DNA of 64,000 nucleotides from Shigella phage PSD9 (MZ561532), one strand, 5' to 3'; positions 9,828-62,937 are shown, counted from the stretch's first letter. Program-made: numbers and translations. The notes: generated by a model not told the origin, from the letters alone.

Positions 9828-9868
9828 GTTGATAGGTCTATAGTATCACGCCTACAGGAGATGTAAAC
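9828..9868 (-). promoter_or_regulatory. early promoter cassette
   Basis: gttgataggtctatagtatca ... gatgtaaac. Confidence 0.6.
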
Positions 9869-17045: not shown

Positions 17046-17105
17046 TATCTGTTCCTCAAGTGAATGTAGGTACATTATACACTATTTTTAATAAATTGGT
17101 ATTGC

Positions 17106-47448: not shown

Positions 47449-47494
47449 GTAGTTGATAGGTCTATAGTACCACGTCTACAGGAGATGTAAACTG
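47449..47494 (-). promoter_or_regulatory. early promoter cassette
   Basis: gtagttgataggtctatagtacca ... gatgtaaac directly upstream of regB. Confidence 0.6.
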
Positions 47495-49012: not shown

Positions 49013-49161
49013 AGTATTTCCTTTGAGGGCCGTTCCTTGGCACATTAATTCGTCCCTTTCTGCATTTACCCATTACCGCACTTGGGCTCGACCTTATTAC
49101 AGGTTGGCGGGAGTCCCTCACAGAATTGTGAGGTCCAGGTTGCTCCCATTTAAAATGCTAA

Positions 49162-49419
49162 TTAACGTTCTTCGTGTTTAAAACCTTTCTTAGTAAACAG
49201 CTTAACAACATCTGCTACTTTACGAAGTTGATCTGCATCAGCAACCAGTTGCTTAACCACTTTCTCGTCAGTTTCTTTAGAGCTAAAAGCGTGCTCAAGT
49301 TCGTCATCATTAGGGTCGGCCATAGAAACTTCAGTGCCGGAAGGTTTAACGTTTACAATCATATTCCAACGTTTAGAAACTAAAGTGGATTCTGTAATAA
49401 ATTCTTGGTAAGTTTTCAT
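49162..49419 (-). CDS. internal head protein (CTS-bearing)
   Basis: N-terminus MKTYQEFITES = T4 capsid-targeting sequence consensus. Confidence 0.6.
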   Translation of the reverse strand: MKTYQEFITESTLVSKRWNMIVNVKPSGTEVSMADPNDDELEHAFSSKETDEKVVKQLVADADQLRKVADVVKLFTKKGFKHEER

Positions 49420-49427
49420 ATTAAGCC

Positions 49428-49787
49428 TTAAAGATGGTCTAGTGCCGGGTTATGAGGTTTTTCTGCTTTAGTAGTGTTTTTATGCCAATCTGATTTAGAA
49501 ACACGGATGGCATCCGCGCCATAAGAACTCTTAAGGAGACCTTTTTTATTGTACACACTTATTGAAGTAAGAGAATCACCATTCCATGTAGCATGAATGA
49601 AGTTAGATTTAGATTTAAGTTCTTTAGCCAAGCTCTGGTTAGTGGCCATGGAAGCAAAGTCTTTACCTGTAACTTTAAAAACTTCAGATGGGTTCAGCCC
49701 TTCTTTGGCCTTAGCCAATTGTTCAGGAGACATAGCTTCGTTAATGCGCTGAGTAGATTCAGTAATAAATTGTTGGTAAGTTTTCAT
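49428..49787 (-). CDS. internal head protein (CTS-bearing)
   Basis: N-terminus MKTYQQFITEST capsid-targeting sequence. Confidence 0.6.
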   Translation of the reverse strand: MKTYQQFITESTQRINEAMSPEQLAKAKEGLNPSEVFKVTGKDFASMATNQSLAKELKSKSNFIHATWNGDSLTSISVYNKKGLLKSSYGADAIRVSKSDWHKNTTKAEKPHNPALDHL

Positions 49788-49829
49788 ATTATTCCTTAAG
49801 TTGATAGAAGTATTCTATCACGGATTTAA

Positions 49830-50246
49830 TTAAGCGTAAATAGCCTTGCCGTAATGTTTGTACCAGGTAGAGCGTTGTGCAATTTTTTCGTCCAAACGGG
49901 CCTGAGATATAGCAATAGAAGCTTCGTGTGGAGTATAGTCACCACGGAATTCCTGAGGAATGTCACTAATGTCCTGGACAGTAGTATCCTTGATATTAAA
50001 ACCACGTTTTAAACATTCGGCTATAAGCTCAATTTGTCGCTTACGTAAAAATTCAAGCTTATCGTAAAAGAATGTAACATGGCCTGTGCCAAGGATAAAA
50101 GTAGGACTGATTTTGAAATCACGGACACGTTTACCATTAGCAACATGCTTACGAACTACACCGAAAACACGTGGCAATTCACGATATTCAGCCATTAAGT
50201 GTTGGTCAGCCAATTCAGATACTAAGGTAAGGTTGATACGAGTCAT
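49830..50246 (-). CDS. denV: endonuclease V (pyrimidine dimer glycosylase) DenV
   Basis: 138 aa, essentially identical to T4 DenV as I recall it ([29 protein letters not shown] ...). Confidence 0.95.
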
Positions 50247-50258
50247 TTTTAATCTCCT

Positions 50259-50304
50259 GTAGTTGATAGGTCTATAGTATCATGACTACAGGAGATGTAA
50301 ACAA
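50259..50304 (-). promoter_or_regulatory. early promoter cassette
   Basis: gtagttgataggtctatagtatca ... gatgtaaac upstream of denV. Confidence 0.6.
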
Positions 50305-50326
50305 CTTTTATCAAGTATCGGCTTTA

Positions 50327-50923
50327 TTAATTACCACGGGCTGCATTAGCAACGGCGTAAGCGTACTGAATATTAGCGTCTTTAAACGTACCTTTAGAGG
50401 TATCTATCTCTGCCTTAAAGCCGCCTTTAACCATAACATCGGCAAATTCTTTACGGAAAGTCATTGCATCAAGACCTTTCCATGCGGATTTATGCTTGGC
50501 AAATTCAAGACCGGCGAAGTTAACTGCTTTAGCCAATTTATTATCAATAGTCCATTTACCTGCTTTAGGTACAAATACAGGACCTTTCTGTTTAGAGAAC
50601 AGTTTTAAATTCCAGCGACGAAGGTCACCGTCAGCTTTAACAAAAGCTGCGTCCAAGTTACTAGCAACAACATCTTGGATATGGGCAAATTTAAGTCCAT
50701 CAGCTTCAATATTTAGGTCGTTACGCCAGCGAAGTCCTTCCCAGGCGAAAGCTTTAAAGTCGGAAGCTTTTGTAGCCAAGTACCGTTCAATAGGAGCTGT
50801 TTTAGCGTCAAAACCGTTTCCTGGGTTGTCAACGCCGTTTCCTTTGTAAGTCCACTCATCTTTATTAATGCCTTGGACCTTTCCTACAGAAGCTTCGGCG
50901 ATAAATTCTTTATACGTTTTCAT
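50327..50923 (-). CDS. ipIII: internal head protein, IPIII-like
   Basis: N-terminus MKTYKEFIAEA capsid-targeting sequence; 198 aa, size and position of T4 IPIII. Confidence 0.6.
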   Translation of the reverse strand: MKTYKEFIAEASVGKVQGINKDEWTYKGNGVDNPGNGFDAKTAPIERYLATKASDFKAFAWEGLRWRNDLNIEADGLKFAHIQDVVASNLDAAFVKADGDLRRWNLKLFSKQKGPVFVPKAGKWTIDNKLAKAVNFAGLEFAKHKSAWKGLDAMTFRKEFADVMVKGGFKAEIDTSKGTFKDANIQYAYAVANAARGN

Positions 50924-50968
50924 ACGGGTTCCTTAAAGGTAAATATTTTAATTGGTCTGTTCAAGTAA

Positions 50969-51007
50969 CTGTAGATATACTATCACAATTCTAGGAGATG
51001 TAAACTG
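50969..51007 (-). promoter_or_regulatory. early promoter cassette (partly degenerate)
   Basis: ctgtagatatactatca ... gatgtaaac. Confidence 0.45.
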
Positions 51008-51010
51008 CTT

Positions 51011-51499
51011 TTATCTATAAGCAGCCCATGTGCCGGTTTTAAAGGTGGCGATAACACGCTTAGCACGATTAGGAGTTTGTTTATACCAACGGGATTGAGC
51101 CAGGTTAACTGCTGCATCGTTCCAACGTTTCTGTTGGAGCATACGTAAAGAGTTAGTGAACCCTGCTACACCTGCTTCACCCATTTGGAATACCATATTA
51201 ATCAGTGCACAACGACGAACTTCGTCCAATACATCATAAACAGGTTTCAATTTAGGATTACGCAGAATAGCTCTACGAGCATTTTCAACCGATCGATTAA
51301 AGAGTTGCTCGGCTTCAGCCATAGTAATACGACCATTACAAACTCGACCCATAAGCTTATCAAGTTCAGCACGAGCAACATCTTTAGAAGGGTTCTTAGT
51401 AATCAATTGGCCAATACCAATAGTCCAATAACCTTCAGTGTCTTTATAAAGATTTAAATCAAGACCTTCGTCTTGACGTAACATATCAAAAATATCCAT
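51011..51499 (-). CDS. e: lysozyme (endolysin) E
   Basis: colinear with T4 lysozyme ([17 protein letters not shown] ... [43 protein letters not shown] ...). Confidence 0.95.
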
Positions 51500-51500
51500 A

Positions 51501-51529
51501 ATACCTCCTGAGTATAGGAGGTATTTATA
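51501..51529 (-). promoter_or_regulatory. RBS-sequestering hairpin overlapped by late promoter TATAAATA
   Basis: inverted repeat atacctcct/aggaggtat (51501-51524) contains the SD of e; minus-strand TATAAATA at 51522-51529. Confidence 0.6.
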
Positions 51530-51979
51530 TCAAAAGAGCGAATCTAAAACCTTAAACATCGACGGGCCCATGACATATTCCCATTGCGGACGTTTAATCA
51601 AGGCAAAAGCATCAAATTCAGGAATAGTACGACCATCAGGGAACGTATGGTAAGCCGTACATTTGCAATCCTTGAACTGCTCGTGTTCCACAGGCACTGT
51701 ATATAAGAACAGATGTAGATTCTTATTGCTTGAATATTTGAACTCACCTAGGTCTTTCAGGAACGCAGGATCGTATGCTGTGAATCCAATCTCTTCTTCG
51801 GTTTCGCGCATTGCCGCTTGAATAGGCTCTTCGCCTGGTTCGACATGACCCTTAGGAATGTCCCATTTATGACGCATATTCTCTGGATTACGAGAGCCTG
51901 TTACACGGCCCATGACCAGTTCTTTATCAACGGTCATGAATAAAATACCGGCAGATAGTTCTTTCACTTTCTTACTCAT
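51530..51979 (-). CDS. nudE: Nudix hydrolase NudE
   Basis: Nudix box GHVEPGEEPIQAAMRETEEEIGF; start adjusted to MSKKVKEL (149 aa). Confidence 0.8.
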   Translation of the reverse strand: MSKKVKELSAGILFMTVDKELVMGRVTGSRNPENMRHKWDIPKGHVEPGEEPIQAAMRETEEEIGFTAYDPAFLKDLGEFKYSSNKNLHLFLYTVPVEHEQFKDCKCTAYHTFPDGRTIPEFDAFALIKRPQWEYVMGPSMFKVLDSLF

Positions 51980-52208
51980 CGTCTCGTTCCCATGATTGTT
52001 TAAAAATATCTTGCATAATAATTTGAAGTCTATTTTCTGATGATGGACTTTCACTATCAGACACTTGAAGCATATAGTCACCAATAGGACAGAACATATC
52101 CATATCGCTTTCTAAGTCTTCTTTAATTTTCTCTTCTGATGTTCCGGTATCATAGGAATACAGGTAAGAATCACATGACTCAGATTTAATATAAATTGCA
52201 ATACTCAT
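51972..52208 (-). CDS. hypothetical acidic protein (78 aa)
   Basis: minus-strand ORF. Confidence 0.4.
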   Translation of the reverse strand: MSIAIYIKSESCDSYLYSYDTGTSEEKIKEDLESDMDMFCPIGDYMLQVSDSESPSSENRLQIIMQDIFKQSWERDDE

Positions 52209-52792
52209 TTACGGCATTCCTTAATAAAAGAGTTTAATGTATTTTTCTTAGTGATATCGTCATATACCTTTTTAACTTTAGAAATACGAAAAGGTACTTC
52301 GATAACAGAGGTCCATAAAAATGATGCGATAAGACCTAAGATAGCAGCAGACATCGCTGAAGCGAATACACAAATAGGCAGGTCATTATCTGTTGTCAGG
52401 AAAAACCCTAGGAGTGGGAAAAATAATATACCCATCCAAACATAGAATCTAGAACTCACCAATTTGTCGTATTCATCACTCCAGGCACGGAAGCCGTATT
52501 TTTTGCTATAACAAATCAATGGGTCTGGAGTCTGTTCTTTATGTGGTTCCGCTTGCCAGCCGTTTACGATATAGCCCATTTTATATTCCTCAATTAAAAG
52601 CTGCTTCATTTCGGCAGTACAACCTGACCAATCTATTGTACTGGCTGAAATTCCTTCATCACCGTCATCGATATTTCGCCAGGACTTTTTAATAATCATA
52701 GTCTCACCACTTGGGATAATAATTCCAGCATTTTCCGACCGACGGATGAAGTTTGTATCAATACCCATACAACCAGGTTCATAAAGGGCCAT
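52205..52792 (-). CDS. hypothetical membrane protein (195 aa)
   Basis: two C-terminal TM helices. Confidence 0.45.
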   Translation of the reverse strand: MALYEPGCMGIDTNFIRRSENAGIIIPSGETMIIKKSWRNIDDGDEGISASTIDWSGCTAEMKQLLIEEYKMGYIVNGWQAEPHKEQTPDPLICYSKKYGFRAWSDEYDKLVSSRFYVWMGILFFPLLGFFLTTDNDLPICVFASAMSAAILGLIASFLWTSVIEVPFRISKVKKVYDDITKKNTLNSFIKECRK

Positions 52793-53478
52793 TACCAGCC
52801 CTCCATAGGGAATTCCAGATATACTTGAGCATTAACGCGGATTTCATTAGTAATCTTTTTAACACGGTCGGTATTACGAGAGACACGACCAAACCAGCGC
52901 CAACCGTTACTTACTGCACGAGAACCTGTATGCCACGTCTGCCAATCAAACTGGAGCAACGTGCGGTCAGGAGCATCCCACTTAGTTAATTCATTAGACT
53001 CAATTTTTTCCAGAACTTCTTTATGCCACTGGCGATAGATAAGTTCGCCTTCAGGAATCTGACTGAACTGGGCAGTTCCGGTTGCAAAATGAGTAGGACA
53101 CACATCAGCGTTAACAAGACCAAGAATATGTTCAGAATGGTATCGAGGATTATCATAATCAGGTTGCCCTGCGGTAATAAAGTGTTGACCCACCGGAATA
53201 TCCGGGCGTGGTACATCATCATGGTGGAAGCCTGGAATTGCAGGGTACCAGCCGGGCATTAACATGTGTACACGGGAATCAAATACGCATTCAACGGCTT
53301 TCCACTCATCAGGGAGATTAGTAATAAAGCTACGAGTAATAGGACCACCATTTTGTGCAGCAAAATTCAAATCACAGTTAAAGAACATAGGCTCGTTTTT
53401 AATATCATCATTAGAAATATGACCTGCAAAACCACCTACTGCACGAGCTTTAGAATTAAAAGTTTTCGGACCGTTCAT
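52792..53478 (-). CDS. hypothetical protein (228 aa)
   Basis: minus-strand ORF; His/Asp-rich segments, no secure motif. Confidence 0.45.
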   Translation of the reverse strand: MNGPKTFNSKARAVGGFAGHISNDDIKNEPMFFNCDLNFAAQNGGPITRSFITNLPDEWKAVECVFDSRVHMLMPGWYPAIPGFHHDDVPRPDIPVGQHFITAGQPDYDNPRYHSEHILGLVNADVCPTHFATGTAQFSQIPEGELIYRQWHKEVLEKIESNELTKWDAPDRTLLQFDWQTWHTGSRAVSNGWRWFGRVSRNTDRVKKITNEIRVNAQVYLEFPMEGW

Positions 53479-53492
53479 AATATTTTCCTCAC

Positions 53493-53705
53493 TTACTTTT
53501 TGTTGAAAAAGTACATTTTACCTTTAGGAGATAAGGATACACGAAGTGCGTTACCAATACCAACTGAACATTTAACCAGGTCAGCAGATTTCAATTCACC
53601 AAATGCTTGACGAAGGTCACCATCACGAGTGTTAACCATCAGGCATTTAGCACCAGCTGCACGAACTTCGTTTAACATGTTGATTGCTTGGTTAGAAAGT
53701 TTCAT
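53493..53705 (-). CDS. hypothetical protein (about 70 aa)
   Basis: start adjusted to MKLSNQ after GGAGAATAA RBS. Confidence 0.4.
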   Translation of the reverse strand: MKLSNQAINMLNEVRAAGAKCLMVNTRDGDLRQAFGELKSADLVKCSVGIGNALRVSLSPKGKMYFFNKK

Positions 53706-53728
53706 TTTATTCTCCATTTCACTCTGTT

Positions 53729-53771
53729 GTTTTGATAGGTCTATAGTATCACACCTATAGACCTTGTACAC
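53729..53771 (-). promoter_or_regulatory. early promoter cassette (GTACAC variant)
   Basis: gttttgataggtctatagtatca ... ccttgtacac. Confidence 0.5.
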
Positions 53772-53783
53772 TGTTTTGTGCAA

Positions 53784-54743
53784 TTATTTTTCGAAAGGAC
53801 GAATTAAATGTTGGTTACGCTTAAACCGTTCAATGTAGTCGTTTTCACCTAAAGTCTTGTACATATTAACCACAGCTTGGTAGTTTTCCCATGCATAAGT
53901 GCGGAACCAACCTGAAGTGATTGAGGTGCACACTTTCTCAAGGGCCATATAGAAACTTAATGATGGTGAAATATTGAAGTCATTAGGAACCTGTGAACGT
54001 TCTAGTGCCAGGACACAAGTTTCTTCATACACACCAGCCAGTTTAATAGCTTCAGGCAAAGCCTCGAACTTCTCACGAGAGGTCATGACTTCAGAACCTT
54101 CCTTCATATAAAAGGTATATGCAGGGCGCCCTGCCAATGCCACTGCTTCATGAATAGAGTCATGGTCCAGCGTATAAATGGTATCATTAAAGAACGATGA
54201 TTTGTTTACATCCAATTTAGGGTGGGAATAGCTCAACGTTTCTTTTTGACGTTGCAACATAATTTCCTGGAGTTCTTCGTTAAGGGTGATACCTTTATTA
54301 CGAAGGTATTTGATGTGGGACATGGTTTTCAAGAAGAACGGATTATTCTTAAGGAAACGATGAGAGGTTTTGATAGCCAGACAGATATCAGGGGTGGCCC
54401 AATAGAAACCAGTAAGACGGTCCTTTTTAATATGATTTTCAGCATATTTCAGGAGACGATAGCTTGAAGTGAAATCTTCGTCTTGAAGCTCACCGGTAAT
54501 TTCTCGTACGTTAGTCAGAGCACGAACGATATAAGCTTCAAAATAGGTTTCTTTACCATTATGCATACATTTGAAAGCCTGGACATCAGGATTGTCAACG
54601 TGTACATGGGCGCCGAACATACGTGCTTTAAAGTGATTCCATGAGCCTTGGTCGGCAATGAAATCCCAATCAGAATTTTCGATATGCTTACTTTCAATCA
54701 GACCAGCGTGGTGCAGTGCACGAGAACCAATAACTAACATCAT
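53784..54743 (-). CDS. hypothetical protein, possible NTase-like fold (about 319 aa)
   Basis: N-terminal IGSRALHHAGL ... SDWDFIA loosely resembles Pol-beta NTase signature; start adjusted. Confidence 0.4.
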   Translation of the reverse strand: MMLVIGSRALHHAGLIESKHIENSDWDFIADQGSWNHFKARMFGAHVHVDNPDVQAFKCMHNGKETYFEAYIVRALTNVREITGELQDEDFTSSYRLLKYAENHIKKDRLTGFYWATPDICLAIKTSHRFLKNNPFFLKTMSHIKYLRNKGITLNEELQEIMLQRQKETLSYSHPKLDVNKSSFFNDTIYTLDHDSIHEAVALAGRPAYTFYMKEGSEVMTSREKFEALPEAIKLAGVYEETCVLALERSQVPNDFNISPSLSFYMALEKVCTSITSGWFRTYAWENYQAVVNMYKTLGENDYIERFKRNQHLIRPFEK

Positions 54744-54762
54744 AATATTTTCCTCAGTAAAC

Positions 54763-55002
54763 TTAAATTTCAGCGACGTAATCGTTATGCAATTCCCACA
54801 TATCATCAGAATTATTCTTAATGATAGGAATTATCTCATTAGAGATTTCTTCAGCATAAGGGTCATTGATACAGTGGGCATCTTCAAAACGAACACCGTA
54901 ATCAGACTTCTTATAAGAGAAGCCATAAATCTTTTTAAACTTGGCGCGAGTAATGCGTACCGGTTCATTGGACTTATCGGACATCGGAGCGTAATACCAC
55001 AT
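54763..55002 (-). CDS. hypothetical protein (79 aa)
   Basis: minus-strand ORF. Confidence 0.4.
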   Translation of the reverse strand: MWYYAPMSDKSNEPVRITRAKFKKIYGFSYKKSDYGVRFEDAHCINDPYAEEISNEIIPIIKNNSDDMWELHNDYVAEI

Positions 55003-55045
55003 ATGTTCTCCTCATGTTTGTGTAGGGTAATAGTAACATGATTTT

Positions 55046-55396
55046 CTAGAGTTGTACATCACTTCTGCAATATTCTAAAAATAATTTATCATTGTCTACT
55101 GTATCCCAACGACGCCAAGACGGGTTCCAGACCAAAGCGTTGTCACCACAATCATTGAGCTTAAAATGGTCGTAGTACATAGCTATGTGTCTAGTCTCGT
55201 CACCAGAGAACCCCAGTATAGGCTCACCGCGGGTGTGATACATATGATGGTGCATTGAGAGGTCGCATTTGTAAAACATCTCACGTTTACCACGAACGAA
55301 CAAGAAGGCCTGTCCATTCATATAGAATTCTTTATTTGTTTTCAAAAGATATTTGAATACTGAATCTTTATGCATAAGTCCTCCTACCACATCCAT
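55046..55396 (-). CDS. hypothetical protein (116 aa)
   Basis: minus-strand ORF. Confidence 0.4.
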   Translation of the reverse strand: MDVVGGLMHKDSVFKYLLKTNKEFYMNGQAFLFVRGKREMFYKCDLSMHHHMYHTRGEPILGFSGDETRHIAMYYDHFKLNDCGDNALVWNPSWRRWDTVDNDKLFLEYCRSDVQL

Positions 55397-55405
55397 GTGG
55401 TTAAA

Positions 55406-55633
55406 TTATTTTCCTAACGAAATACGAGTAGGTTTTTTACCGAAATAGTCTTCATAAGAACCATCTAAACGACCTGCTTTAGACCGACAATATGAATCGT
55501 ACTTTTTGTAATAAGTCATCTCAGTATTATAACGCGGGTGTCTATCAGCCATAATAATACTTAACGGCCAACCTTTGGCATAATCGCGAAGACCATTTAT
55601 TTTACGAATGTATCTTTTCTTTAATTTTAGCAT
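55406..55633 (-). CDS. hypothetical basic protein (75 aa)
   Basis: minus-strand ORF. Confidence 0.4.
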   Translation of the reverse strand: MLKLKKRYIRKINGLRDYAKGWPLSIIMADRHPRYNTEMTYYKKYDSYCRSKAGRLDGSYEDYFGKKPTRISLGK

Positions 55634-55851
55634 GAGCTCGGATACCAGATTTTACCATCGGCCTGAGCAACGAAGGTGCGTCCAGCTTCTTCACCATAAC
55701 AAGAACTATTCAGCCAATCTTCGAGACGAACTTCACCGTCATAATCGTCGAGCTCAACACCAAAACTTTGAGCAGAAGCCATATCTTTTACTTTCTTATA
55801 CAGTGCAGCCAGTTCAAGTGCAGCTTTTTCTAATTCATTAATATCAGACAT
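55627..55851 (-). CDS. small acidic protein, W-x-SS-x-C C-tail family (paralog 4)
   Basis: ends ... KIWYPSSC. Confidence 0.45.
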   Translation of the reverse strand: MSDINELEKAALELAALYKKVKDMASAQSFGVELDDYDGEVRLEDWLNSSCYGEEAGRTFVAQADGKIWYPSSC

Positions 55852-55862
55852 TTTTTATCACC

Positions 55863-56075
55863 TTAGCAAGACATAGAGGATGTAAACCAGAAACCTTCAC
55901 CTTCCGGAATACCGTAGTCATCACGGACCCATTCGTAATCATCATATTCCGGGTTCTTTGGAGAAATGTATTCTCCACGACCAGAAACACGGAACTCTTC
56001 ACCCGTTTCGTCAGCCACAGACTGGCCTTTACGTACTAATTCACGGATTTGGTTTTCAATTTCATCAATAGTCAT
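55863..56075 (-). CDS. small acidic protein, W-x-SS-x-C C-tail family (paralog 3)
   Basis: ends ... FWFTSSMSC. Confidence 0.45.
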   Translation of the reverse strand: MTIDEIENQIRELVRKGQSVADETGEEFRVSGRGEYISPKNPEYDDYEWVRDDYGIPEGEGFWFTSSMSC

Positions 56076-56084
56076 TTTATTTCC

Positions 56085-56366
56085 TTAACATTCAGAAGAA
56101 GAGGACACCCAACCACCATTTTCTAGGCTGGTAGTGTAATCATGTTGGTTTACAATAGCGTACTGAGCTTCACCGTATTCTTCCCAGTGGGCAAGGTCGG
56201 CTTTCAAGGCGCCAGGAGAATAATAGTCACCGCCCATACCGCGAGCAGGGTATATATTAAAATGAGTCTCATATTTGTTTGCAATTTCCTCGGCACGACG
56301 AATAGCTTTATGGATATCATTTACTGCGTCAGCCAGCTCTTTATTTTTATGGTAATCATTCATCAT
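56085..56366 (-). CDS. small acidic protein, W-x-SS-x-C C-tail family (paralog 2)
   Basis: ends ... GGWVSSSSEC. Confidence 0.45.
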   Translation of the reverse strand: MMNDYHKNKELADAVNDIHKAIRRAEEIANKYETHFNIYPARGMGGDYYSPGALKADLAHWEEYGEAQYAIVNQHDYTTSLENGGWVSSSSEC

Positions 56367-56375
56367 AAAATTTCC

Positions 56376-56666
56376 TTAGCACATTGCCGAAGAGGAGATC
56401 CAAGCACCAACTGTAACGACGCCATTTTCAACTTCACCACCGTTGTTTTCAATTTCATCTTTAAACCACTGGGAGCATTCATAACCGACAGGATAATATG
56501 TACGGCCTGAACCATAATCACCAGTACCGAATTGGATACCATACTTATCGGCAATAGCTTCACATTCATGTTCGATGGTATCTACTTTATTTAGAAGAGC
56601 ATAGATAGCCTTTTCTGCAGATTTCTCGTCGTTGTGTTCTGGGATTTCGATTTCAATTTTATTCAT
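56376..56666 (-). CDS. small acidic protein, W-x-SS-x-C C-tail family (paralog 1)
   Basis: ends ... GAWISSSAMC. Confidence 0.45.
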   Translation of the reverse strand: MNKIEIEIPEHNDEKSAEKAIYALLNKVDTIEHECEAIADKYGIQFGTGDYGSGRTYYPVGYECSQWFKDEIENNGGEVENGVVTVGAWISSSAMC

Positions 56667-57013
56667 GATTTACATTCCTTAATAAAGGTTTCAAGGTCAT
56701 TACGTTTGGTTTGTTTTACATACTCATTATAATTAGCCATCGATACAGCATATCTCTTTTTACGTGGCTTGTTTATTTTATTGGTTTGGGCAATATCAAA
56801 GACCAATGGGATAAAATACCCTATTAAAGCAGGAACCCAAATCCAGGCAAGGTTCAATTCAAATATGTTTTGTGTCGTATCATTAACGACTCCACCAGCA
56901 ATTAGTCCAACAAGTCCGGCAATCGTACCAGTGACAAGTCCAGCGAATAAAGAAATAGCAATATCATAATCTGCTAATGCGTAACCAGGGTCGGTTTTAC
57001 TAGGCTTATACAT
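56663..57013 (-). CDS. hypothetical membrane protein (about 116 aa)
   Basis: TM helices; start adjusted to MYKPSK. Confidence 0.4.
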   Translation of the reverse strand: MYKPSKTDPGYALADYDIAISLFAGLVTGTIAGLVGLIAGGVVNDTTQNIFELNLAWIWVPALIGYFIPLVFDIAQTNKINKPRKKRYAVSMANYNEYVKQTKRNDLETFIKECKS

Positions 57014-57542
57014 TTTGAACCTCTTTAGCGTATTCACGGCATTCAGCAATAAAACGATTAAGCTTCCGTTGTTGTTTTCGAATCTCTGATGTATACTCAT
57101 TGGCTAAAATAATAAGCTCGTCTTTATCGTAATTTTTAATATCAGAGTAAGATGGGCGGCGGTCGACCATACCAAAATGGTCACCATTTTCTAACATCAA
57201 ATAGCATACTAAATGGTAATCATCGTCGGCATTAGTAAGCTGTTTATAATCGCTTGGTTCATTTAAAGAGTATACTGAATAGCGTAGCCCAGCGAATTCC
57301 ACTCGTTGAATAGCCAGATTTACGTCAATAATTTCCAAAGCATCTTCAAAAGAAAGGTCTTCAGCTAAAGCAAAAATAAAAGGTAATTTGGTAGTATCGC
57401 CACGGCTAGATGTTCTGCTTAAGAAATCGTTTGAATAGCCTAGGTCTTGGCGAATTCTATAAAGAACTGAATTGGTTTCATGGGAAAGACCACTATTTTT
57501 AAACCAATCAATATTTGATATCAAATTATCATATAAACCCAT
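57006..57542 (-). CDS. hypothetical protein (178 aa)
   Basis: minus-strand ORF. Confidence 0.45.
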   Translation of the reverse strand: MGLYDNLISNIDWFKNSGLSHETNSVLYRIRQDLGYSNDFLSRTSSRGDTTKLPFIFALAEDLSFEDALEIIDVNLAIQRVEFAGLRYSVYSLNEPSDYKQLTNADDDYHLVCYLMLENGDHFGMVDRRPSYSDIKNYDKDELIILANEYTSEIRKQQRKLNRFIAECREYAKEVQNV

Positions 57543-57590
57543 AATATTCTCCTCTCCTCCAAATAGGGAGACCGAAGTCTCCCAGTAAAA

Positions 57591-58184
57591 TTACTTAAGT
57601 GAATTAATGTAGTCTTCGATATCAGCAGAAGTCGTATCCATTCCAACTTGTGGGCCTTTAAACGTTTCTACACGCAGTAGGGTGTCTTCAATATCAATCT
57701 TGGTCAGTGCAGCGATTTCAACAACATCATCGGCAGTAGCAATACCAAGGGCAGCCATATTACGAGTTTCACGAATGTACTCGAGCTTAACGGCTAGTTC
57801 CTGACGAGAGTCATCAAGTTCCTTAACCTTCAGTTTAATTTCATTACGCATTTCGATATAATCATCGGCTTTCTTACGAAGCTGGGTAGCTGTACGACGA
57901 TAAAGGAGGCCAAGTTTAGCATGTACCTGGACATCAGCGCCTTCGGCAATCAGTTTACGAATTTCACGTTCTTTAGAAGCAGCGAGCTGGTCTTTTTCAT
58001 TAGCCAACGCACGAATACGTTTTTCTTCATTCACAGACTTAACATGAGCAGTCTGGAGTTCAGTGATTTTATCAATCAGAGTAGAAGCAGCTTTTGTGTA
58101 TTGGTCTTCGATTGACAGGTTCTGAGCCATTGCGGTGCCCAGTTTAGAACGAATGAATTCAACGATTTTCTTTAAAGTGTTCAT
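57591..58184 (-). CDS. hypothetical coiled-coil protein (197 aa)
   Basis: heptad-rich sequence, loosely PspA/IM30-like. Confidence 0.4.
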
Positions 58185-58260
58185 AGTATTTCCTTCAGTT
58201 GGTTAACGTTTTGTAATCCATGAGGACATTATACCCTGTCCTCTGAGGTTTGTAAACATT

Positions 58261-58659
58261 TTATTTCATTTTTGCGAGGCAAATTTCATTGGCTTCCCAT
58301 TGAGCTTGCTTAATAATAGCTTTGGATACAGGAGCCCTTTGGCCATAAGTTTTTGACGTTGAGAGAACAATACATTTGTTTGCTTCATTATGCCAGCCCC
58401 ATGATTTTTCGCCATGAGTACCTTTAACTACAGCTGACACCTCAACAGAGCAACCACCATCAGAAATCTTGGTTTCGACAACCCATTCATTTCTCTCAGC
58501 AGCTTCAATTTCTAATCTAGTTTTTTCTTCATACATCGCGGCCCAATCAGTTTTTGCCAAGTTGAAAGTAAGAGCTTTCTCTAATTCTTTGGCATATTTT
58601 TGTTGTTCAGGTGTTAATGAATTATACAACTCTTGCATTTCTTTATCTTCGATATTCAT
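58261..58659 (-). CDS. hypothetical protein (132 aa)
   Basis: minus-strand ORF. Confidence 0.4.
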   Translation of the reverse strand: MNIEDKEMQELYNSLTPEQQKYAKELEKALTFNLAKTDWAAMYEEKTRLEIEAAERNEWVVETKISDGGCSVEVSAVVKGTHGEKSWGWHNEANKCIVLSTSKTYGQRAPVSKAIIKQAQWEANEICLAKMK

Positions 58660-58717
58660 TATGTTCTCCTCAAATTATGGGCTCATAATATCTTAATCAT
58701 GAGCCCATGTAAACGTT

Positions 58718-58996
58718 TTATTTCATATTATTGAAATAATTTTCTGCATCAAAATCATTACCATGGTAAACTTTGGTAGACGATTTGGCGTAACCTTCAG
58801 CTGAGAACATATTAATCACAACTTTAATTGTATACCACTGTCCATCTTCATTACCCATTACTGCATAGGTTTCATACACCGGGTGTTCAGGACCGATAAC
58901 CTTAATATCGTTAACTGTGGCACCAAATTCTTCCGGAACACATTTCATAAAGAAATTAAACACTTCACCATAATTATCCATTTTACTCTCCTTCAC
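58718..58996 (-). CDS. hypothetical protein (92 aa)
   Basis: ORF downstream of an early promoter cassette. Confidence 0.4.
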   Translation of the reverse strand: MKESKMDNYGEVFNFFMKCVPEEFGATVNDIKVIGPEHPVYETYAVMGNEDGQWYTIKVVINMFSAEGYAKSSTKVYHGNDFDAENYFNNMK

Positions 58997-59001
58997 TCTG
59001 T

Positions 59002-59048
59002 TGTTTTGATAGGTCTATAGTATCATGTTCTACGAAAGAGTAAACATC
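59002..59048 (-). promoter_or_regulatory. early promoter cassette
   Basis: gttttgataggtctatagtatca ... gagtaaac. Confidence 0.5.
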
Positions 59049-59069
59049 TTTTTTAAACCTTTTAGAAAC

Positions 59070-59100
59070 AAAAAAAAGGCCCAACCTTTCGGAAGGGCCT
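59070..59100 (-). terminator. intrinsic terminator hairpin (copy A)
   Basis: aggccc ... gggcct stem with A-run on plus = T-run on minus; identical hairpin at 59696-59724. Confidence 0.6.
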
Positions 59101-59104
59101 AGAA

Positions 59105-59659
59105 TCAGTTCTTGTAGAACCGGAATGGGTTTATGTGGAAGGCTAACATAGCCTTAGGGATTTTACGAGACAAAAGGCTCTTAAGCTTCCAACCACAGTA
59201 CACGCGAAGGTAAAAGGTAATCCCACCAACCTTAAGATATGGAACTGAAGCAAATACACCCCAGGCGTCGTCATTCCACATCCATAACCATCCGTGATGA
59301 GCTTTATCAGGAGAACCGGATTCCACGTCGGGATTACCTCGATAATGGAATTCCGAGCTACAATCACGACCGAGTTTATGGTAAGCAAAGTTATAAGCTT
59401 TATTTCGCCATAGCCAAGCTACTCTCTGAAGATAAACACCACCCGGCATTTTCCTGATGTTAGCCCAACGTTTAATATGACCTTTGTCGCCGTCAATTGG
59501 ATTATCGTATGTCATCATCCAATCAAAGCCATATGGTAATTTACCGGTCTTTTTATTGTGGAAAGGGACTACAAAAGGTGCAAGGATAACAGCCAGAACC
59601 ATAGAGATAAAATCTAGAGGAACCAACAGTACCCAACTCAAATATTTTAAAAGTTTCAT
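59105..59659 (-). CDS. hypothetical membrane protein (184 aa)
   Basis: N-terminal TM helix; Trp/His-rich; late promoter upstream; flanked by identical terminators. Confidence 0.45.
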   Translation of the reverse strand: MKLLKYLSWVLLVPLDFISMVLAVILAPFVVPFHNKKTGKLPYGFDWMMTYDNPIDGDKGHIKRWANIRKMPGGVYLQRVAWLWRNKAYNFAYHKLGRDCSSEFHYRGNPDVESGSPDKAHHGWLWMWNDDAWGVFASVPYLKVGGITFYLRVYCGWKLKSLLSRKIPKAMLAFHINPFRFYKN

Positions 59660-59686
59660 ATTATTTCCTAGGTTAGTTTAACTACA

Positions 59687-59694
59687 TATTTATA
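59687..59694 (-). promoter_or_regulatory. late promoter TATAAATA
   Basis: plus tatttata about 25 nt upstream of the 59105..59659 start. Confidence 0.5.
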
Positions 59695-59695
59695 C

Positions 59696-59724
59696 AAAAA
59701 AGGCCCAACCTTTCGGAAGGGCCT
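59696..59724 (-). terminator. intrinsic terminator hairpin (copy B)
   Basis: same aaaaaaggcccaacctttcggaagggcct element, 3' of the tRNA cluster. Confidence 0.6.
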
Positions 59725-59774
59725 TTAACCTAGGGTAACCTTGTCGGGGTTCCACCTGCTAGGCAAGTGTTTGT

Positions 59775-59866
59775 ACGAAACGCCGGGATTCGAACCCGGT
59801 TATTAAGTAGTTGACGCCACTCAATATTTTTAAAAGGCCGTATCTCGACCATATCCGAACGTTCCG
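59775..59866 (-). ncRNA. tRNA-like element (aberrant; canonical T-arm, no clear anticodon arm)
   Basis: minus strand has CCGGG-TTCGAAT-CCCGG T-arm and a 7-bp acceptor-like closure (CGGAACG/CGTTTCG) but an AT-rich interior I cannot fold as a tRNA. Confidence 0.3.
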
Positions 59867-60108
59867 TCAAAAACGCTACTCGGCTTACGGCAAAGATATT
59901 TCCTCGAATCGATAATTCGGTGCGCCGTTTCTGCTGTGATGTAAGGGGACGTTAACAGATCGTAAAGATTTGTTAATGCCAGTCCTTACTCAGGGAACAT
60001 CAGTCCGACGACTTACCGGTAGCGACCCGGTTTCTTGTTTGTTGCGCCGGTGAATGCTGGTAATCAGTCTTCATACGACGGCTTGACTATATAATAGTCT
60101 TCATTTGG

Positions 60109-60180
60109 TATCCCGCCCTGGGATCGAACCAGGACCGCAAACTTAGAAGGATCGTATGCTATCCATTACACCAGCGGGAC
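60109..60180 (-). tRNA. tRNA-Arg (anticodon UCU)
   Basis: hand-folded cloverleaf: acceptor GTCCCGC/GCGGGAT, D-loop AATGGATA, anticodon loop CTTCTAA, T-arm CCTGG-TTCGATC-CCAGG. Confidence 0.6.
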
Positions 60181-60188
60181 GTAGTTGG

Positions 60189-60262
60189 TGACCCAGACCA
60201 GATTTGAACTGGTAACCTTTCCCTTATGAGGGGACTGCTGCTAACCATTGAGCTACAGGGCC
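60189..60262 (-). tRNA. tRNA with CAU anticodon (Ile2-like or Met)
   Basis: hand-folded: GGCCC acceptor start, D-loop AATGGTTAG, anticodon loop CTCATAA, T-arm ACCAG-TTCAAAT-CTGGT; several stem mismatches. Confidence 0.5.
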
Positions 60263-60267
60263 TTAAT

Positions 60268-60540
60268 TTAAATTACAAATCCAGCAGGAGCATTATCATC
60301 TTTAGCCATGTGCTGAATTGTGTGATAAGTCATTTCTTCAGGAGCAACCAGATAAGCCGCAGCGTTAACTAGTGGAATTATTTTTGGTTTAGCGAATGTG
60401 CTATCGGCAATTGCCATAAAGGGCTCGCCGTCGGTCTCAACTTCGCCAAATTGACATTCATATGAAATAGAACAACGTTTGGTAGTTGTTGTCTTGGTTT
60501 CTGGGTCGTAAAAAGCTAATTTTAATACTAACATAAACAC
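60268..60540 (-). CDS. hypothetical protein (90 aa)
   Basis: minus-strand ORF adjacent to the tRNAs. Confidence 0.4.
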   Translation of the reverse strand: MFMLVLKLAFYDPETKTTTTKRCSISYECQFGEVETDGEPFMAIADSTFAKPKIIPLVNAAAYLVAPEEMTYHTIQHMAKDDNAPAGFVI

Positions 60541-60708
60541 CTCAAATAAAATTAAGTAAAGTAAGTTTGATTAATAGACCTTGTCTATTATGAAAGGTTC
60601 TTTGAGGGAAGAACCTTTGGTAATAGAGGGTATTAATGATAGAGTAATAATAACACATTACTCTTAAAGCATATTACTATTTTTAGGAATAGTCTGGTCA
60701 AATTTGAT

Positions 60709-60999
60709 TCATTGTGGCCACATATTAATGTAATCAAGTTTAATAGAAGCAATCTTCAAAGGATTTTTAAAGATGTCGTATTCGATCAATCCGTTTTCAG
60801 TTGCGGTGTAGAAAGTAAAGTTAACAGAATTATAACGGCGACCATTAACTTTTAGTTTAACGTCGCTTGAACTACGACCAATATTAACCTGTTGGACATC
60901 AAGCACAGCACCTTTGCCAAAGTTGCGAATCAGTAGCTCTGCTGCAACCTGGTCTGAATTATAGCCATTCTCTGGATTAGTAACCTTAACGTATAGCAT
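60709..60999 (-). CDS. hypothetical protein (96 aa)
   Basis: minus-strand ORF. Confidence 0.4.
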   Translation of the reverse strand: MLYVKVTNPENGYNSDQVAAELLIRNFGKGAVLDVQQVNIGRSSSDVKLKVNGRRYNSVNFTFYTATENGLIEYDIFKNPLKIASIKLDYINMWPQ

Positions 61000-61407
61000 T
61001 TAACCCTCGTCTACAATAGTATGGGTATTAGCATTAACAATCTGCCACCAGTCACAGTCAAAACGATTAGAACCGTAACGAGGCTTTTTCTCATTTTCGT
61101 TAATAATATCACGTAGTTCGTCTTCAGAAAATGCTTTAGCGATTAAATCGGTATAGCCACCACGTGGATAATAGTTATCACCCGCGAACAAAAGGAAATT
61201 TACTTTACCAGAAGGAACATATGCTTCCTTAGGATACTTGTTTCCTGCATGGTCTACCACTTCAATATAACGATAAGGGATATCAGTACTTTCAACCCAT
61301 TGCCAAGCTGCAGAAGGGGATTCAAAAGCATCTACACCTAAACGGTTATCTTCATCTTTAGACGGGTTATTTTCATAATCCGCATATACATAATATTCAA
61401 TGTTCAT
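61000..61407 (-). CDS. hypothetical protein (135 aa)
   Basis: minus-strand ORF with ATGA-type overlap. Confidence 0.4.
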   Translation of the reverse strand: MNIEYYVYADYENNPSKDEDNRLGVDAFESPSAAWQWVESTDIPYRYIEVVDHAGNKYPKEAYVPSGKVNFLLFAGDNYYPRGGYTDLIAKAFSEDELRDIINENEKKPRYGSNRFDCDWWQIVNANTHTIVDEG

Positions 61408-61592
61408 TATTCACCTTTAGAGATTTTATCCATAACGAAAGAAATTGAACCAATTAAGAATGCCACTACTAAAGAGATTATATTCTCGGAAGTTGAAAGC
61501 ATATCGAGCATGAATCCTGCAAACATACTAAAGCCAAAAGCAGTAACAGCGGCCGGTGCAGTAACATTTCTAATTAATTCACAACGTTTCAT
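61407..61592 (-). CDS. hypothetical small membrane protein (about 61 aa)
   Basis: two hydrophobic helices; start adjusted to MKRCEL. Confidence 0.4.
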   Translation of the reverse strand: MKRCELIRNVTAPAAVTAFGFSMFAGFMLDMLSTSENIISLVVAFLIGSISFVMDKISKGE

Positions 61593-61612
61593 TTTATTCT
61601 CCAATCACTCAT

Positions 61613-61658
61613 TTGTTTTGATAGGGCTATAGTACCATCACTAAAGCCCGTTGTAAAC
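61613..61658 (-). promoter_or_regulatory. early promoter cassette
   Basis: gttttgatagggctatagtacca ... gttgtaaac. Confidence 0.5.
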
Positions 61659-61660
61659 AA

Positions 61661-61933
61661 TTATTTTAAATAAATTGCATATTTTTTATAACCAGCCGTC
61701 TCGTGGCGCAGCCCTTTTTCATTAGCAAAACGTTCAATATTGTTAATTTGATTCTGGTCAAGTTCTGAAGTATCAAATACAAAAAAGTTTCGCTTATTGC
61801 CTAAAGTTACGTGATTAGTCAAATCGATGTTATAGAGATGATTTATATTATCAATCATGGTCTTAACAGATTTGTTAATTTTTACTTCTTCATTAAGAAT
61901 AGATTCAGCGATAAATTCTTGGTATGATTTCAT
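61661..61933 (-). CDS. internal head protein (CTS-bearing)
   Basis: N-terminus MKSYQEFIAES capsid-targeting sequence. Confidence 0.55.
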   Translation of the reverse strand: MKSYQEFIAESILNEEVKINKSVKTMIDNINHLYNIDLTNHVTLGNKRNFFVFDTSELDQNQINNIERFANEKGLRHETAGYKKYAIYLK

Positions 61934-61934
61934 T

Positions 61935-62159
61935 TTATTCAGCGCCAGCGGCTTTCAAAAGTTTTTTAAGATTGGCTATGCCGCCAGCAGAAAACGTGAC
62001 CTTGCCACCTTTTTCATTGATAGAGCCAGTCAATTTAGCAAGCTTATCACTAGGGACTTTTTTAAAATCAGCCAGTGTGCCATCAAAGGTTTTTGTAACA
62101 ATTGGCAGTTCATCTTCATGTCTTTTAGCTTCGGTGATAAATTCTTGATAAGTTTTCAT
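61935..62159 (-). CDS. internal head protein (CTS-bearing, IPI-position)
   Basis: N-terminus MKTYQEFITEA; lies beside 57B as T4 ipI does. Confidence 0.55.
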   Translation of the reverse strand: MKTYQEFITEAKRHEDELPIVTKTFDGTLADFKKVPSDKLAKLTGSINEKGGKVTFSAGGIANLKKLLKAAGAE

Positions 62160-62183
62160 TTTGATTTCCGTTTGGTTAGTTTG

Positions 62184-62228
62184 TTTTGATAGGTCTATAG
62201 TATCATGCCTATAGACCTTGTAAACAAC
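62184..62228 (-). promoter_or_regulatory. early promoter cassette
   Basis: gttttgataggtctatagtatca ... ccttgtaaac. Confidence 0.55.
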
Positions 62229-62236
62229 TTTTTAAA

Positions 62237-62929
<693 letters not shown>

Positions 62930-62937
<8 letters not shown>

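Follow-up and report, generated by a model that had tools for sequence, protein, structure and literature searches.

Five genes with a capsid targeting sequence at two variable loci of a T4-like phage: probable T-even internal head proteins and inhibitors of host defences

Shigella phage PSD9 (MZ561532) is a T4-like coliphage of the genus Dhakavirus, that is, a T-even phage related to JS98, WG01 and QL01. The window analyzed here, a 64,000-nucleotide (64-kb) stretch of its genome, contains on the minus strand five tagged ORFs of 85, 119, 198, 90 and 74 codons, raising the question of whether their products are internal proteins (IPs) of the phage head and which functions these proteins fulfill. 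A preliminary description of the window had noted that all five begin with MK(T/S)Y(Q/K)(E/Q)FI(A/T)E, as proved correct. It had also located them at positions 49162, 49428, 50327, 61661 and 61935; these coordinates are accurate but correspond to the stop-codon ends of the ORFs and not to their starts, because the genes lie on the minus strand (Table 1). The data presented below indicate that the five genes probably encode T-even internal head proteins that are injected as inhibitors of host defences.

Table 1. Features of the two loci (positions in the window; genes run from the stop-codon end, lower value, to the start codon, upper value)
Feature	Position	Strand	Remark
Cluster 1, IP locus			e-[IPIII]-denV-[119][85]-vs.8 (gene order vs T4)
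85-aa CTS protein	49162..49419	(-)	near-orphan body
CTS of the 85-aa protein	49390-49419	(-)	MKTYQEFITE, then ST
119-aa CTS protein	49428..49787	(-)	unnamed IP candidate, phrog_3966
CTS of the 119-aa protein	49758-49787	(-)	MKTYQQFITE, then ST
Perfect inverted repeat, 8 nt	49802-49820		at promoter 49812..49840
Early-type promoter TTTACG-N17-TAGAAT, TG	49812..49840	(-)	over denV end, upstream of 119/85-aa cassette
denV	49830-50246		inside cluster 1
Inverted repeat, 17-nt arms	50247-50301		encloses promoter 50274..50301
Early-type promoter	50274..50301	(-)	IPIII/denV boundary
IPIII (Ip3) orthologue, 198 aa	50327..50923	(-)	T4 and PHROG homology
CTS of the 198-aa protein	50894-50923	(-)	MKTYKEFIAE, then AS
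Early-type promoter TTTACA-N16-TAGTAT, upstream TG	50977..51004	(-)	between e and IPIII gene
T4 late-promoter consensus TATAAATA	51522..51529	(-)	upstream of e; consensus match only
Cluster 2, IP locus			57B-[Ip8][Ip9]-trna.4 (gene order vs T4)
Early-type promoter	61629..61657	(-)	directly downstream of Ip9, upstream of trna.4; distal cassette boundary
Ip9, 90 aa	61661..61933	(-)	phrog_7673, QL01 and IME08 notes
CTS of Ip9	61904-61933	(-)	MKSYQEFIAE, then SI
Ip8, 74 aa	61935..62159	(-)	phrog_8765, QL01 note
CTS of Ip8	62130-62159	(-)	MKTYQEFITE, then AK
Perfect inverted repeat, 10 nt	62191-62218		at promoter 62197..62224
Early-type promoter	62197..62224	(-)	between 57B and Ip8

A degenerate DNA pattern covering the first eight codons of the tag (<=2 mismatches) matched exactly five sites in the 64 kb, all of them in these ORFs, for a chance expectation of 0.01 in shuffled sequences; none of 100 shuffles reached five sites. 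No sixth copy of the tag emerged when the window was searched in six frames at the protein level with <=3 substitutions permitted. Tyr4, Phe7, Ile8 and Glu10 were invariant in the five copies, positions 3, 5, 6 and 9 varied, and the residue following the predicted cut was Ser or Ala in all cases. The capsid targeting sequence (CTS) of T4 has been defined experimentally as the first 10 residues of IPIII and IPII; mutagenesis assigned residues 4 and 7 to targeting and residues 8 and 10 to cleavage by gp21, and the 10-residue tag alone is enough to package foreign proteins (PMC9026906). Judged at positions 4, 7, 8 and 10, following the same source, all five proteins carry a CTS. T4 IPII has the same 10-residue tag as the proteins of the window, whereas T4 IPI differs by a 19-residue leader (MKTFKEFTSTTTPVSTITE). 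IPI and IPII belong to the same class, being small, tagged, gp21-processed, injected and encoded at the same two loci.

The first 30 nucleotides of the genes were identical at 23 to 28 of 30 positions in pairwise comparisons, as might be expected if the conserved 5' end were a nucleic-acid signal (a translation-initiation region or an RNA element) and not a peptide tag. This explanation is scarcely credible. Codons 4 (TAC/TAT) and 8 (ATT/ATC), which specify invariant residues, showed synonymous differences only, indicating that the constraint acts on the protein, and codon 9 was represented by five different codons encoding just Thr or Ala. The ribosome-binding regions upstream differed between the five copies, and the peptide itself was shown experimentally to be the targeting signal (PMC9026906).

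Comparison of the gene order with those of T4, WG01, QL01, JS10 and IME08 revealed that cluster 1 is syntenic with the ipIII/ipII locus of T4 and cluster 2 with the ipI locus, the two being separated, within positions 49162-62159, by ~10.7 kb of unrelated genes (e, nudE, e.x genes, two tRNAs, trna.2-4). All five genes lie inside the two variable IP loci that are classical for T-even phages and known to be hypervariable; the two clusters distinguished from the outset correspond to these loci. Repoila 1994 and Comeau 2007, as cited in PMC2839356, reported over 30 IP variants at two variable loci. Genes of this class have been on record since 1994, names already exist for three members in the window, and the internal-protein reading of the five genes is textbook biology. 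It is supported by the tag, the position, the homologies described below and the gp21 protease of a relative: the closest relative, WG01, encodes gp21 (89% identical to T4 gp21), gp22, gp67 and gp68, the head-gene region lying outside the 64-kb window. The papers searched contained no proteomic data on Dhakavirus IPs. Five copies of the IP genes are not exceptional, as WG01 has eight tagged IP genes.

T4-early-type promoters were found at every cassette boundary and inverted repeats at four of the five. These elements match the IP-associated promoters and stem-loops of Repoila 1994, as summarized in PMC2839356. The sites near the IP genes were exclusively of the early type; a point against the packaging reading is that nothing in the sequence analyzed accounts for the synthesis of enough protein when heads are being assembled. 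The consensus match upstream of e is the sole late-type site that could give late read-through transcripts of cluster 1, and no late-promoter consensus was detected upstream of cluster 2 within the window. The best matches of locus 1 were LQ5 and WG01 (98.5%), QL01 covering just 74%, and the best match of locus 2 was QL01 (99.8%), with WG01 at 93.6%. The window is thus a mosaic of a WG01/LQ5-type locus 1 and a QL01-type locus 2. The presence of two loci, the sharing of only the tag between cassettes and the early-promoter/stem-loop flanks are shared with the T-even hypervariable IP loci (PMC2839356), as is the variation of gene content between close relatives; the particular combination found here, IPIII + 119 + 85 / Ip8 + Ip9, reflects the mosaic of the two locus types just named.

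The 198-aa protein is, on the basis of sequence homology, the IPIII (Ip3) orthologue. It displayed 87% identity with T4 IPIII over its full length (E = 6e-128) and matched phrog_5341 ("internal virion protein"; E = 6.6e-115), which together with Pfam Phage_T4_IpIII represents the family; homologues in JS10 and WG01 are annotated as ipIII or internal virion protein. The T4 protein begins with MKTYQEFIAE, and both genes are located directly downstream of e, followed by ipII in T4 but by denV in PSD9. The predicted mature product comprises 188 aa (pI 9.5). Relative to T4 IPIII, the 198-aa protein differs by 19 substitutions and by an insertion of 6 residues (VDNPGN), and a shift in specificity is therefore possible. 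Comparison of the bodies (residue 11 to the end) of the five proteins by pairwise BLASTP gave a best match of only E = 0.18. Thus, the bodies, described as divergent at first, are so among the five (E >= 0.18) but not between the 198-aa protein and T4 IPIII. The 85-, 119-, 90- and 74-aa bodies showed no significant similarity to T4 IPI, IPII or IPIII. The preliminary description, which had spoken of extra members beyond the three IPs of T4, has to be amended in this respect, since the window encodes an IPIII orthologue together with four proteins that bear no relation to IPI or IPII.

The 74- and 90-aa proteins belong to the Ip8 and Ip9 families of the public records, which are variants of the ipI locus occupying the 57B-trna.4 slot. 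Both matched their families over the full length (Ip8, phrog_8765, "internal virion protein", E = 8.1e-27; Ip9, phrog_7673, "internal head protein", E = 6.5e-56). RefSeq notes of QL01, whose locus is 99.8% identical at the DNA level, read "Ip8" and "Ip9 gene product", and the note for the Ip9 homologue of IME08 reads "similar to RB15 and K3 Ip9". The copies in the window differ in essentially nothing from the named proteins, variants of which recur across many genomes. The start of Ip9 lies 1 nt past the stop of Ip8, indicating that the two genes form one cassette.

The 119-aa protein matched phrog_3966 over its full length ("unknown function"; E = 3.9e-26) and is carried by 89 phage records; among the matches listed, it is hypothetical, mis-annotated or unannotated, and none is labelled as an internal protein. 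Other coliphage records, among them Av-05 and phiC120, contain homologues with 35-37% identity, which in Av-05 lie directly after ipIII. The protein contains a second possible gp21 site, INE followed by A, ending at residue 17. The 85-aa protein was present in 6 of 50,697 phage records, annotated as "hypothetical" or unannotated in all of them. It formed one cluster among 5.8 billion proteins; a set of 1.84 billion representative proteins yielded two, with 96% and 56% identity and the CTS present in each. The AAGG that forms its Shine-Dalgarno sequence shares nucleotides with the stop codon of the 119-aa gene, indicating that these genes also form a single cassette. The 119- and 85-aa families appear to be new, previously unannotated members of the class, to which no IP label was attached in the records or PHROGs examined.

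Because very few records carry the 85-aa ORF, no separate promoter precedes it and its structure was predicted with low confidence (AF2 model, pLDDT 64), it would be the most plausible case if at least one tagged ORF were a decaying or non-expressed remnant, the tag being kept only as a 30-nt recombination hotspot. We regard this scenario as highly improbable, since the ORF, preceded by a Shine-Dalgarno sequence and translationally adjacent to the 119-aa gene, is intact in all six carrier records, with 97.6-100% identity at the protein level. Furthermore, the 56% homologue keeps the length, the tag and the motifs W-N-M, PSGT and SKET, and occupies the same place, as the last IP gene before vs.8, on another T4-like contig with five tagged genes at the locus.

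According to a 2025 study, each of T4 Ip1, Ip2 and Ip3 inhibits one distinct GmrSD type IV restriction enzyme, without cross-protection, IPI (Ip1) acting on GmrSD-CT596 and IPII (Ip2) on GmrSD-ECOR21 (PMC12373910). Infection of ECOR17 by T4 requires IPIII, and IPIII lacking the CTS is active when produced from a plasmid (10.1101/2022.04.14.488369). By analogy with the inhibition of GmrSD enzymes by Ip1-Ip3, the expectation of anti-defence functions is stronger than the preliminary description had assumed, and the 198-aa protein most likely shares the inhibition of ECOR17-type GmrSD by Ip3 (PMC12373910). Homology to a characterized GmrSD inhibitor was found for this protein only. The other four bodies, including that of the 119-aa protein, showed no similarity to characterized inhibitors and no Pfam, PDB or fold match; their targets are thus extrapolated from the three T4 cases.

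With the T4 experiments as a guide, packaging, cleavage, injection and anti-restriction would proceed as follows. Through its CTS, each precursor would attach to the core of the scaffold (gp22 and others) during prohead assembly. The gp21 prohead protease would cut after Glu10 (I-x-E, before Ser or Ala), freeing the mature proteins inside the shell, and the DNA would be packaged around them. Upon infection, they would be ejected into the cell together with the leading DNA, as pre-made, instantly usable inhibitors of defences attacking the hypermodified phage DNA. The 198-aa protein would block the type IV restriction mentioned above, and Ip8, Ip9, the 119-aa protein and the 85-aa protein would be unrelated cargoes, each most likely specific for another modification-dependent restriction variant or another first-line defence. 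In the two IP loci, which are prone to recombination, the one- and two-gene cassettes bounded by early-type promoters could be exchanged between phages by means of their common 30-nt tag and of the promoter elements. The Dar proteins of P1 are large, are incorporated in an ordered, DarA/Hdf-dependent manner and target type I restriction. Like the IPs, they (DarA, DarB, Hdf, etc.) are packed in the head, coinjected with the DNA and guard against restriction (PMC12810830), but they are unrelated proteins of another family with an unrelated incorporation pathway. As for the DNA modification, WG01 has no gene annotated as an alpha- or beta-glucosyltransferase, and the window contains a thymidylate-synthase homologue, a kinase and a nucleotidyltransferase cluster, in agreement with the arabinosylated-cytosine pathway reported for Dhakaviruses (PMC13326640).

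The mature proteins of the window have masses of 6.7-20.7 kDa (~8-20 kDa for the T4 IPs). Their pIs are 9.5, 9.5, 9.6 and 8.0 (~9.5 for the 119-aa protein and ~9.6 for Ip8) and 6.1 for the 85-aa protein (75 aa once mature); the values computed here for the T4 IPs range from 7.9 to 9.7, IPI being the lowest at 7.9. The pI of the 85-aa protein, ~6.1, is below those of the other four window proteins and of the three T4 IPs. That all but one of the mature proteins are basic or almost so in net charge (pI 8-9.6), that a T4 head contains ~1000 IP molecules and that head assembly is aberrant in IPIII-minus and IP-null mutants of T4 (PMC9026906) would be accounted for if the packaged proteins were chiefly structural or physical, acting in core assembly, charge neutralization, organization of the condensed DNA or ejection, the diversity of the bodies reflecting weak constraint. 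Head morphogenesis is likewise influenced by T4 IPIII (PMC9026906), and the proteins may therefore be structural in part. A chiefly structural function is nonetheless very unlikely, since all three T4 IPs have specific anti-restriction targets (PMC12373910), tag-less IPIII acts from a plasmid (10.1101/2022.04.14.488369) and the IP genes of T4 are non-essential (PMC9026906). In addition, the body families are well conserved, as Ip8 and Ip9 recur and the 85-aa motifs are kept at 56% identity, which argues for specific folded functions and not filler.

Although inhibition of host defences remains our preferred reading, some of the injected effectors, the 85- and 119-aa proteins especially, may be aimed beyond type IV restriction, at other immune systems or at host physiology (transcription, proteases, superinfecting phages). 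The bodies are indeed unrelated to Ip1, Ip2 and Ip3, the same tag is found elsewhere on a GNAT acetyltransferase, a HiPIP-like protein and an LRR-like protein, and T4 also packages the ADP-ribosyltransferase Alt, whose target is RNA polymerase (PMC9026906). This is possible but doubtful, as all T-even IPs of known function inhibit GmrSD-type enzymes (PMC12373910), the mature size of 64-109 residues suits binding inhibitors more than enzymes and no enzymatic domain was detected in the four small proteins. It is rather unlikely that a new family of injected proteins countering host defences, with a target outside the GmrSD subtypes blocked by Ip1, Ip2 and Ip3, begins with the 85-aa protein and perhaps also with that of 119 aa. 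The 85-aa protein is near-neutral, near-orphan, always tagged and always last in the IP locus. A restriction or sensing system specific for arabinosylated-cytosine DNA would be one candidate target of such a family.

The five open reading frames to which the preliminary description had attributed a capsid targeting sequence (CTS) are all real, lie on the minus strand, and carry the tags reported for them; the positions listed for them correspond to the 3′ end of each gene. A degenerate DNA pattern covering the first eight codons of the tag matched the window at five sites, precisely those of the five ORFs (0.01 expected from shuffles), and a six-frame protein search of the window allowing up to three substitutions revealed no sixth copy. 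As had also been claimed, the bodies are divergent, since no significant similarity was detected among the five proteins past residue 10. Their interpretation as internal proteins (IPs) is supported by the tag, by synteny, and by homology, whereas we infer their packaging and function from T4.

Coordinates of the features of the window and of the comparison loci
Feature	Location	Strand	Remark
85-aa tagged ORF	49162-49419	minus	N terminus MKTYQEFITE
119-aa tagged ORF	49428-49787	minus	N terminus MKTYQQFITE
198-aa tagged ORF	50327-50923	minus	N terminus MKTYKEFIAE
90-aa tagged ORF	61661-61933	minus	N terminus MKSYQEFIAE
74-aa tagged ORF	61935-62159	minus	N terminus MKTYQEFITE
Locus 1 as compared	49000-51600
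Locus 2 as compared	61300-63000
Early-type promoter, example	50247-50301 (span of the inverted repeat)	minus
Early-type promoter, example	62191-62218 (span of the inverted repeat)	minus
Early-type promoter, example	9840-9867	minus
Early-type promoter, example	47464-47491	minus
Gene cluster between uvsX and DNA polymerase	12895-17606	minus
tRNA-Arg(TCT) and tRNA-Met(CAT)	60106-60262	minus	adjacent
phrog_899 paralogues	55627-56666	minus	four, in tandem
T4-like contig, tagged genes of locus 1	L096 1743-4267		Logan SRR10097265, 118.9 kb; five tagged genes
IMG/VR tag example	L008 9316-9345
IMG/VR tag example	L058 3497-4197
IMG/VR tag example	L012 10284-10313
IMG/VR tag example	L016 3622-3651
IMG/VR tag example	L023 5181-5210
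S-CRM01 gp185	L095 1501-1896		'acetyltransferase'

In experiments, the CTS was identified with the ten N-terminal residues of T4 IPIII, in which residues 4 and 7 weigh most in targeting and residues 8 and 10 in cleavage by the prohead protease gp21; the tag alone is enough for GFP, nucleases, and other foreign proteins to be carried into heads (PMC9026906; PMC3012670). Y4, F7, I8, and E10 are the same in all five genes of the window, and positions 3, 5, 6, and 9 are variable. Codons 4 and 8 differ synonymously between the five copies and position 9 is specified by five different codons, all for Thr or Ala, indicating that selection acts on the peptide and not on the RNA. In all five, Glu10 is followed by Ser or Ala. 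A further I-x-E↓A motif, which ends at residue 17, is present in the 119-aa protein and recalls the longer leader of T4 IPII. The related phage WG01 encodes gp21 (89% identical to that of T4) and the scaffolding-core proteins gp22, gp67, and gp68; the protease gene of the window phage itself lies outside the 64 kb.

By sequence, the IPIII orthologue among the five is the 198-aa protein (87% identity to T4 IPIII; phrog_5341, E = 6.6e-115). The 74- and 90-aa proteins belong to the PHROG internal-protein families phrog_8765 and phrog_7673, respectively, and are noted as Ip8 and Ip9 in the QL01 and IME08 records ("similar to RB15 and K3 Ip9"); a literature search for Ip8 and Ip9 turned up unrelated papers only. 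For the 119-aa protein, the match to phrog_3966 ("unknown function") spans the full length; it is present in 89 phage records, and no annotation among those listed labels it as an internal protein. Among the 89 are homologues at 35 to 37% identity, for example in Av-05, which are encoded directly after ipIII. The 85-aa protein has no full-length match in PHROG and is represented by 6 of 50,697 phage records, one cluster in a collection of 5.8 billion proteins, and two clusters among 1.84 billion representatives. The N terminus of the farther cluster (56% identity) is also MKTYQEFITE, and this homologue is the last tagged gene before vs.8, that is, in the same slot, in the metagenomic T4-like contig L096. 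Locus 1 of this 119-kb contig holds five tagged genes, which encode a DUF7412 protein (158 aa), a 92-aa protein, an IPIII variant with the divergent leader MKTFNEFNAMITE, a 134-aa protein, and the 88-aa homologue of the 85-aa protein of the window; denV separates the second of these genes from the third. In its mature form, the 85-aa protein has a pI of ~6.1, in contrast to the basic IPs of T4.

Domain and structure searches added little to these assignments. None of the five proteins gave a Pfam match above threshold, and sequence searches of the PDB returned nothing apart from an alignment of 28 residues between the 119-aa protein and 9hnh. This hit was rejected as spurious, the chain, which looks like a designed repeat protein, matching the query three times via a repeated, near-identical helical motif. 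Single-sequence AlphaFold models of the 85- and 119-aa proteins were weak (pLDDT of 64 and 69, respectively) and had no Foldseek match in the PDB with an E value of <0.6, so that no fold was assigned to either protein. Deeper alignments were not feasible because the large protein searches gave one cluster per query.

The window phage belongs to the Dhakaviruses, JS98-like T-even coliphages in the Straboviridae. The gene order is nudE, e, [198 aa], denV, [119 aa], [85 aa], vs.8 in cluster 1 and gene 1, 57A, 57B, [74 aa], [90 aa], trna.4 in cluster 2. The corresponding positions in T4 are taken by ipIII and ipII (the interval from e to denV) and by ipI (the interval from 57B to trna.4). These slots are occupied by other tagged genes, of 132 and 100 aa, in JS10 and by gp118, Ip7, and gp147 in WG01, which has eight tagged genes altogether. 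Thus, five tagged genes are an ordinary number for the group. Locus 1 is 98.5% identical to LQ5 and WG01, with a coverage of only 74% for QL01, whereas locus 2 is 99.8% identical to QL01 and only 93.6% identical to WG01, which contains the additional genes Ip7 and gp147. A 132-aa tagged gene located between e and ipIII in WG01 is missing from the window. The window is therefore a mosaic, and the different nearest relatives of its two loci provide direct evidence that the loci assort by recombination. The tRNA region, including two adjacent tRNA genes, lies between them.

Promoters of the T4 early type (TTTAC-N13/14-TG-N-TA-NN-AT) occur 16 times in the window (701-62224), always on the minus strand. 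The IP cassettes are bracketed by five of these promoters: one precedes each of the IPIII gene, denV, the 119/85 pair, and the Ip8/Ip9 pair, and the fifth lies immediately downstream of Ip9; four of these five, at which repeats were examined, overlap short inverted repeats across the −10 region or the transcript start. This layout agrees with published accounts of IP-associated promoter/stem-loop elements (PMC2839356). Several early-type promoters, including some outside the IP loci, have the spacer ATCTCCTGTAG in common, and these promoters are neither specific to IPs nor confined to IP loci. Since generic sigma-70 and terminator scans revealed no enrichment over shuffles, only the specific T4 early form was relied on. 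Early-type promoters are the only ones next to the IP genes: the late-promoter consensus has a single site near cluster 1, upstream of e, and, within the window, no site preceding cluster 2 was found. Coupling within each pair is tight: the stop codon of the 119-aa gene overlaps the Shine-Dalgarno sequence of the 85-aa gene, and the Ip9 start follows the Ip8 stop by one nucleotide.

T4 IPI has long been known as an inhibitor of the type IV restriction enzyme GmrSD, and a 2025 study extended this activity to Ip2 and Ip3, which act on distinct type IV restriction systems of the GmrSD type, with no cross-protection by any of the three proteins (PMC12373910). Infection of ECOR17 by T4 requires IPIII, and plasmid-borne IPIII is active without its tag (10.1101/2022.04.14.488369). 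By homology, the 198-aa protein should inhibit GmrSD-type restriction in the manner of Ip3. A similar subtype-specific anti-restriction role would be the best inference for the other four, to which homology lends no support.

The gene cluster between uvsX and the DNA polymerase gene encodes a 232-aa thymidylate-synthase homologue, a 178-aa P-loop kinase-like protein, a 567-aa nucleotidyltransferase-phosphotransferase (kinase) fusion, and three unknown proteins of 297, 124, and 166 aa. No alpha- or beta-glucosyltransferase appears in the annotation of WG01. The uvsX-adjacent cluster and the WG01 annotation match the RB69-type cytosine arabinosylation cluster said to be common to Dhakaviruses and fit the arabinosylated-cytosine pathway reported for this group (PMC6024577; PMC13326640), and the phage DNA would be of the kind that type IV restriction enzymes attack.

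Together, these results confirm the observation and support its interpretation for a system that is already well described: it was recognized as early as the 1990s that variable IPs encoded at two loci are packaged by way of the tag, and names already existed for three of the five genes. The only apparently new elements are the 119- and 85-aa members, which lack an internal-protein label in public records, where they are "hypothetical," and which can be re-annotated as internal head proteins. Because every T4 IP is, since 2025, a subtype-specific type IV inhibitor, uncharacterised tagged cargo offers a probe for the matching host defence. The short list comprises Ip8, Ip9, and the 119- and 85-aa proteins, and their value as probes is greatest in a phage group with DNA modification of the arabinose type rather than the glucose type.

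An exact tag-codon scan of IMG/VR gave 105 matches and 88 distinct ORFs, whose bodies form about 31 unrelated families, in agreement with the ">30 variants" of IPs at two variable loci published earlier (Repoila 1994 and Comeau 2007, as cited in PMC2839356). The 85-aa family was absent from this set, and a 224-aa environmental tagged family had no tblastn match among cultured phages.

MKTY[KQ][EQ]FI[TA]E starts many ORFs in environmental viral contigs beyond the T-even coliphages (L008-L091). Some of these contigs belong to distant T4-like phages, such as L008, which contains homologues of gp17, 18, 19, 20, 21 (43% identical), and 22. Cargo unlike that of T4 includes a GNAT acetyltransferase family of 122 to 126 aa (PF13508, above threshold), a 67-aa HiPIP-like Cys-rich protein, a 270-aa LRR-like protein, and very basic proteins of 170 to 296 aa. 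The tagged GNAT family is 33% identical to gp185 of the cultured cyanomyophage S-CRM01 (Kyanoviridae), which begins with MKTFDEFLTE; no paper tying the CTS to cyanophages was found in the literature searched. The GNAT module also aligns with 'DarB-like antirestriction' proteins of Pseudomonas phage Skulduggery and Serratia phage Parlo.

Elsewhere in the window, the phrog_899 paralogues (unknown function; 74, 70, 93, and 96 aa) each have, at the extreme C terminus, a Trp residue, then within a few residues a stretch rich in Ser, and Cys as the last residue (...KIWYPSSC, ...GFWFTSSMSC, ...GGWVSSSSEC, and ...GAWISSSAMC).
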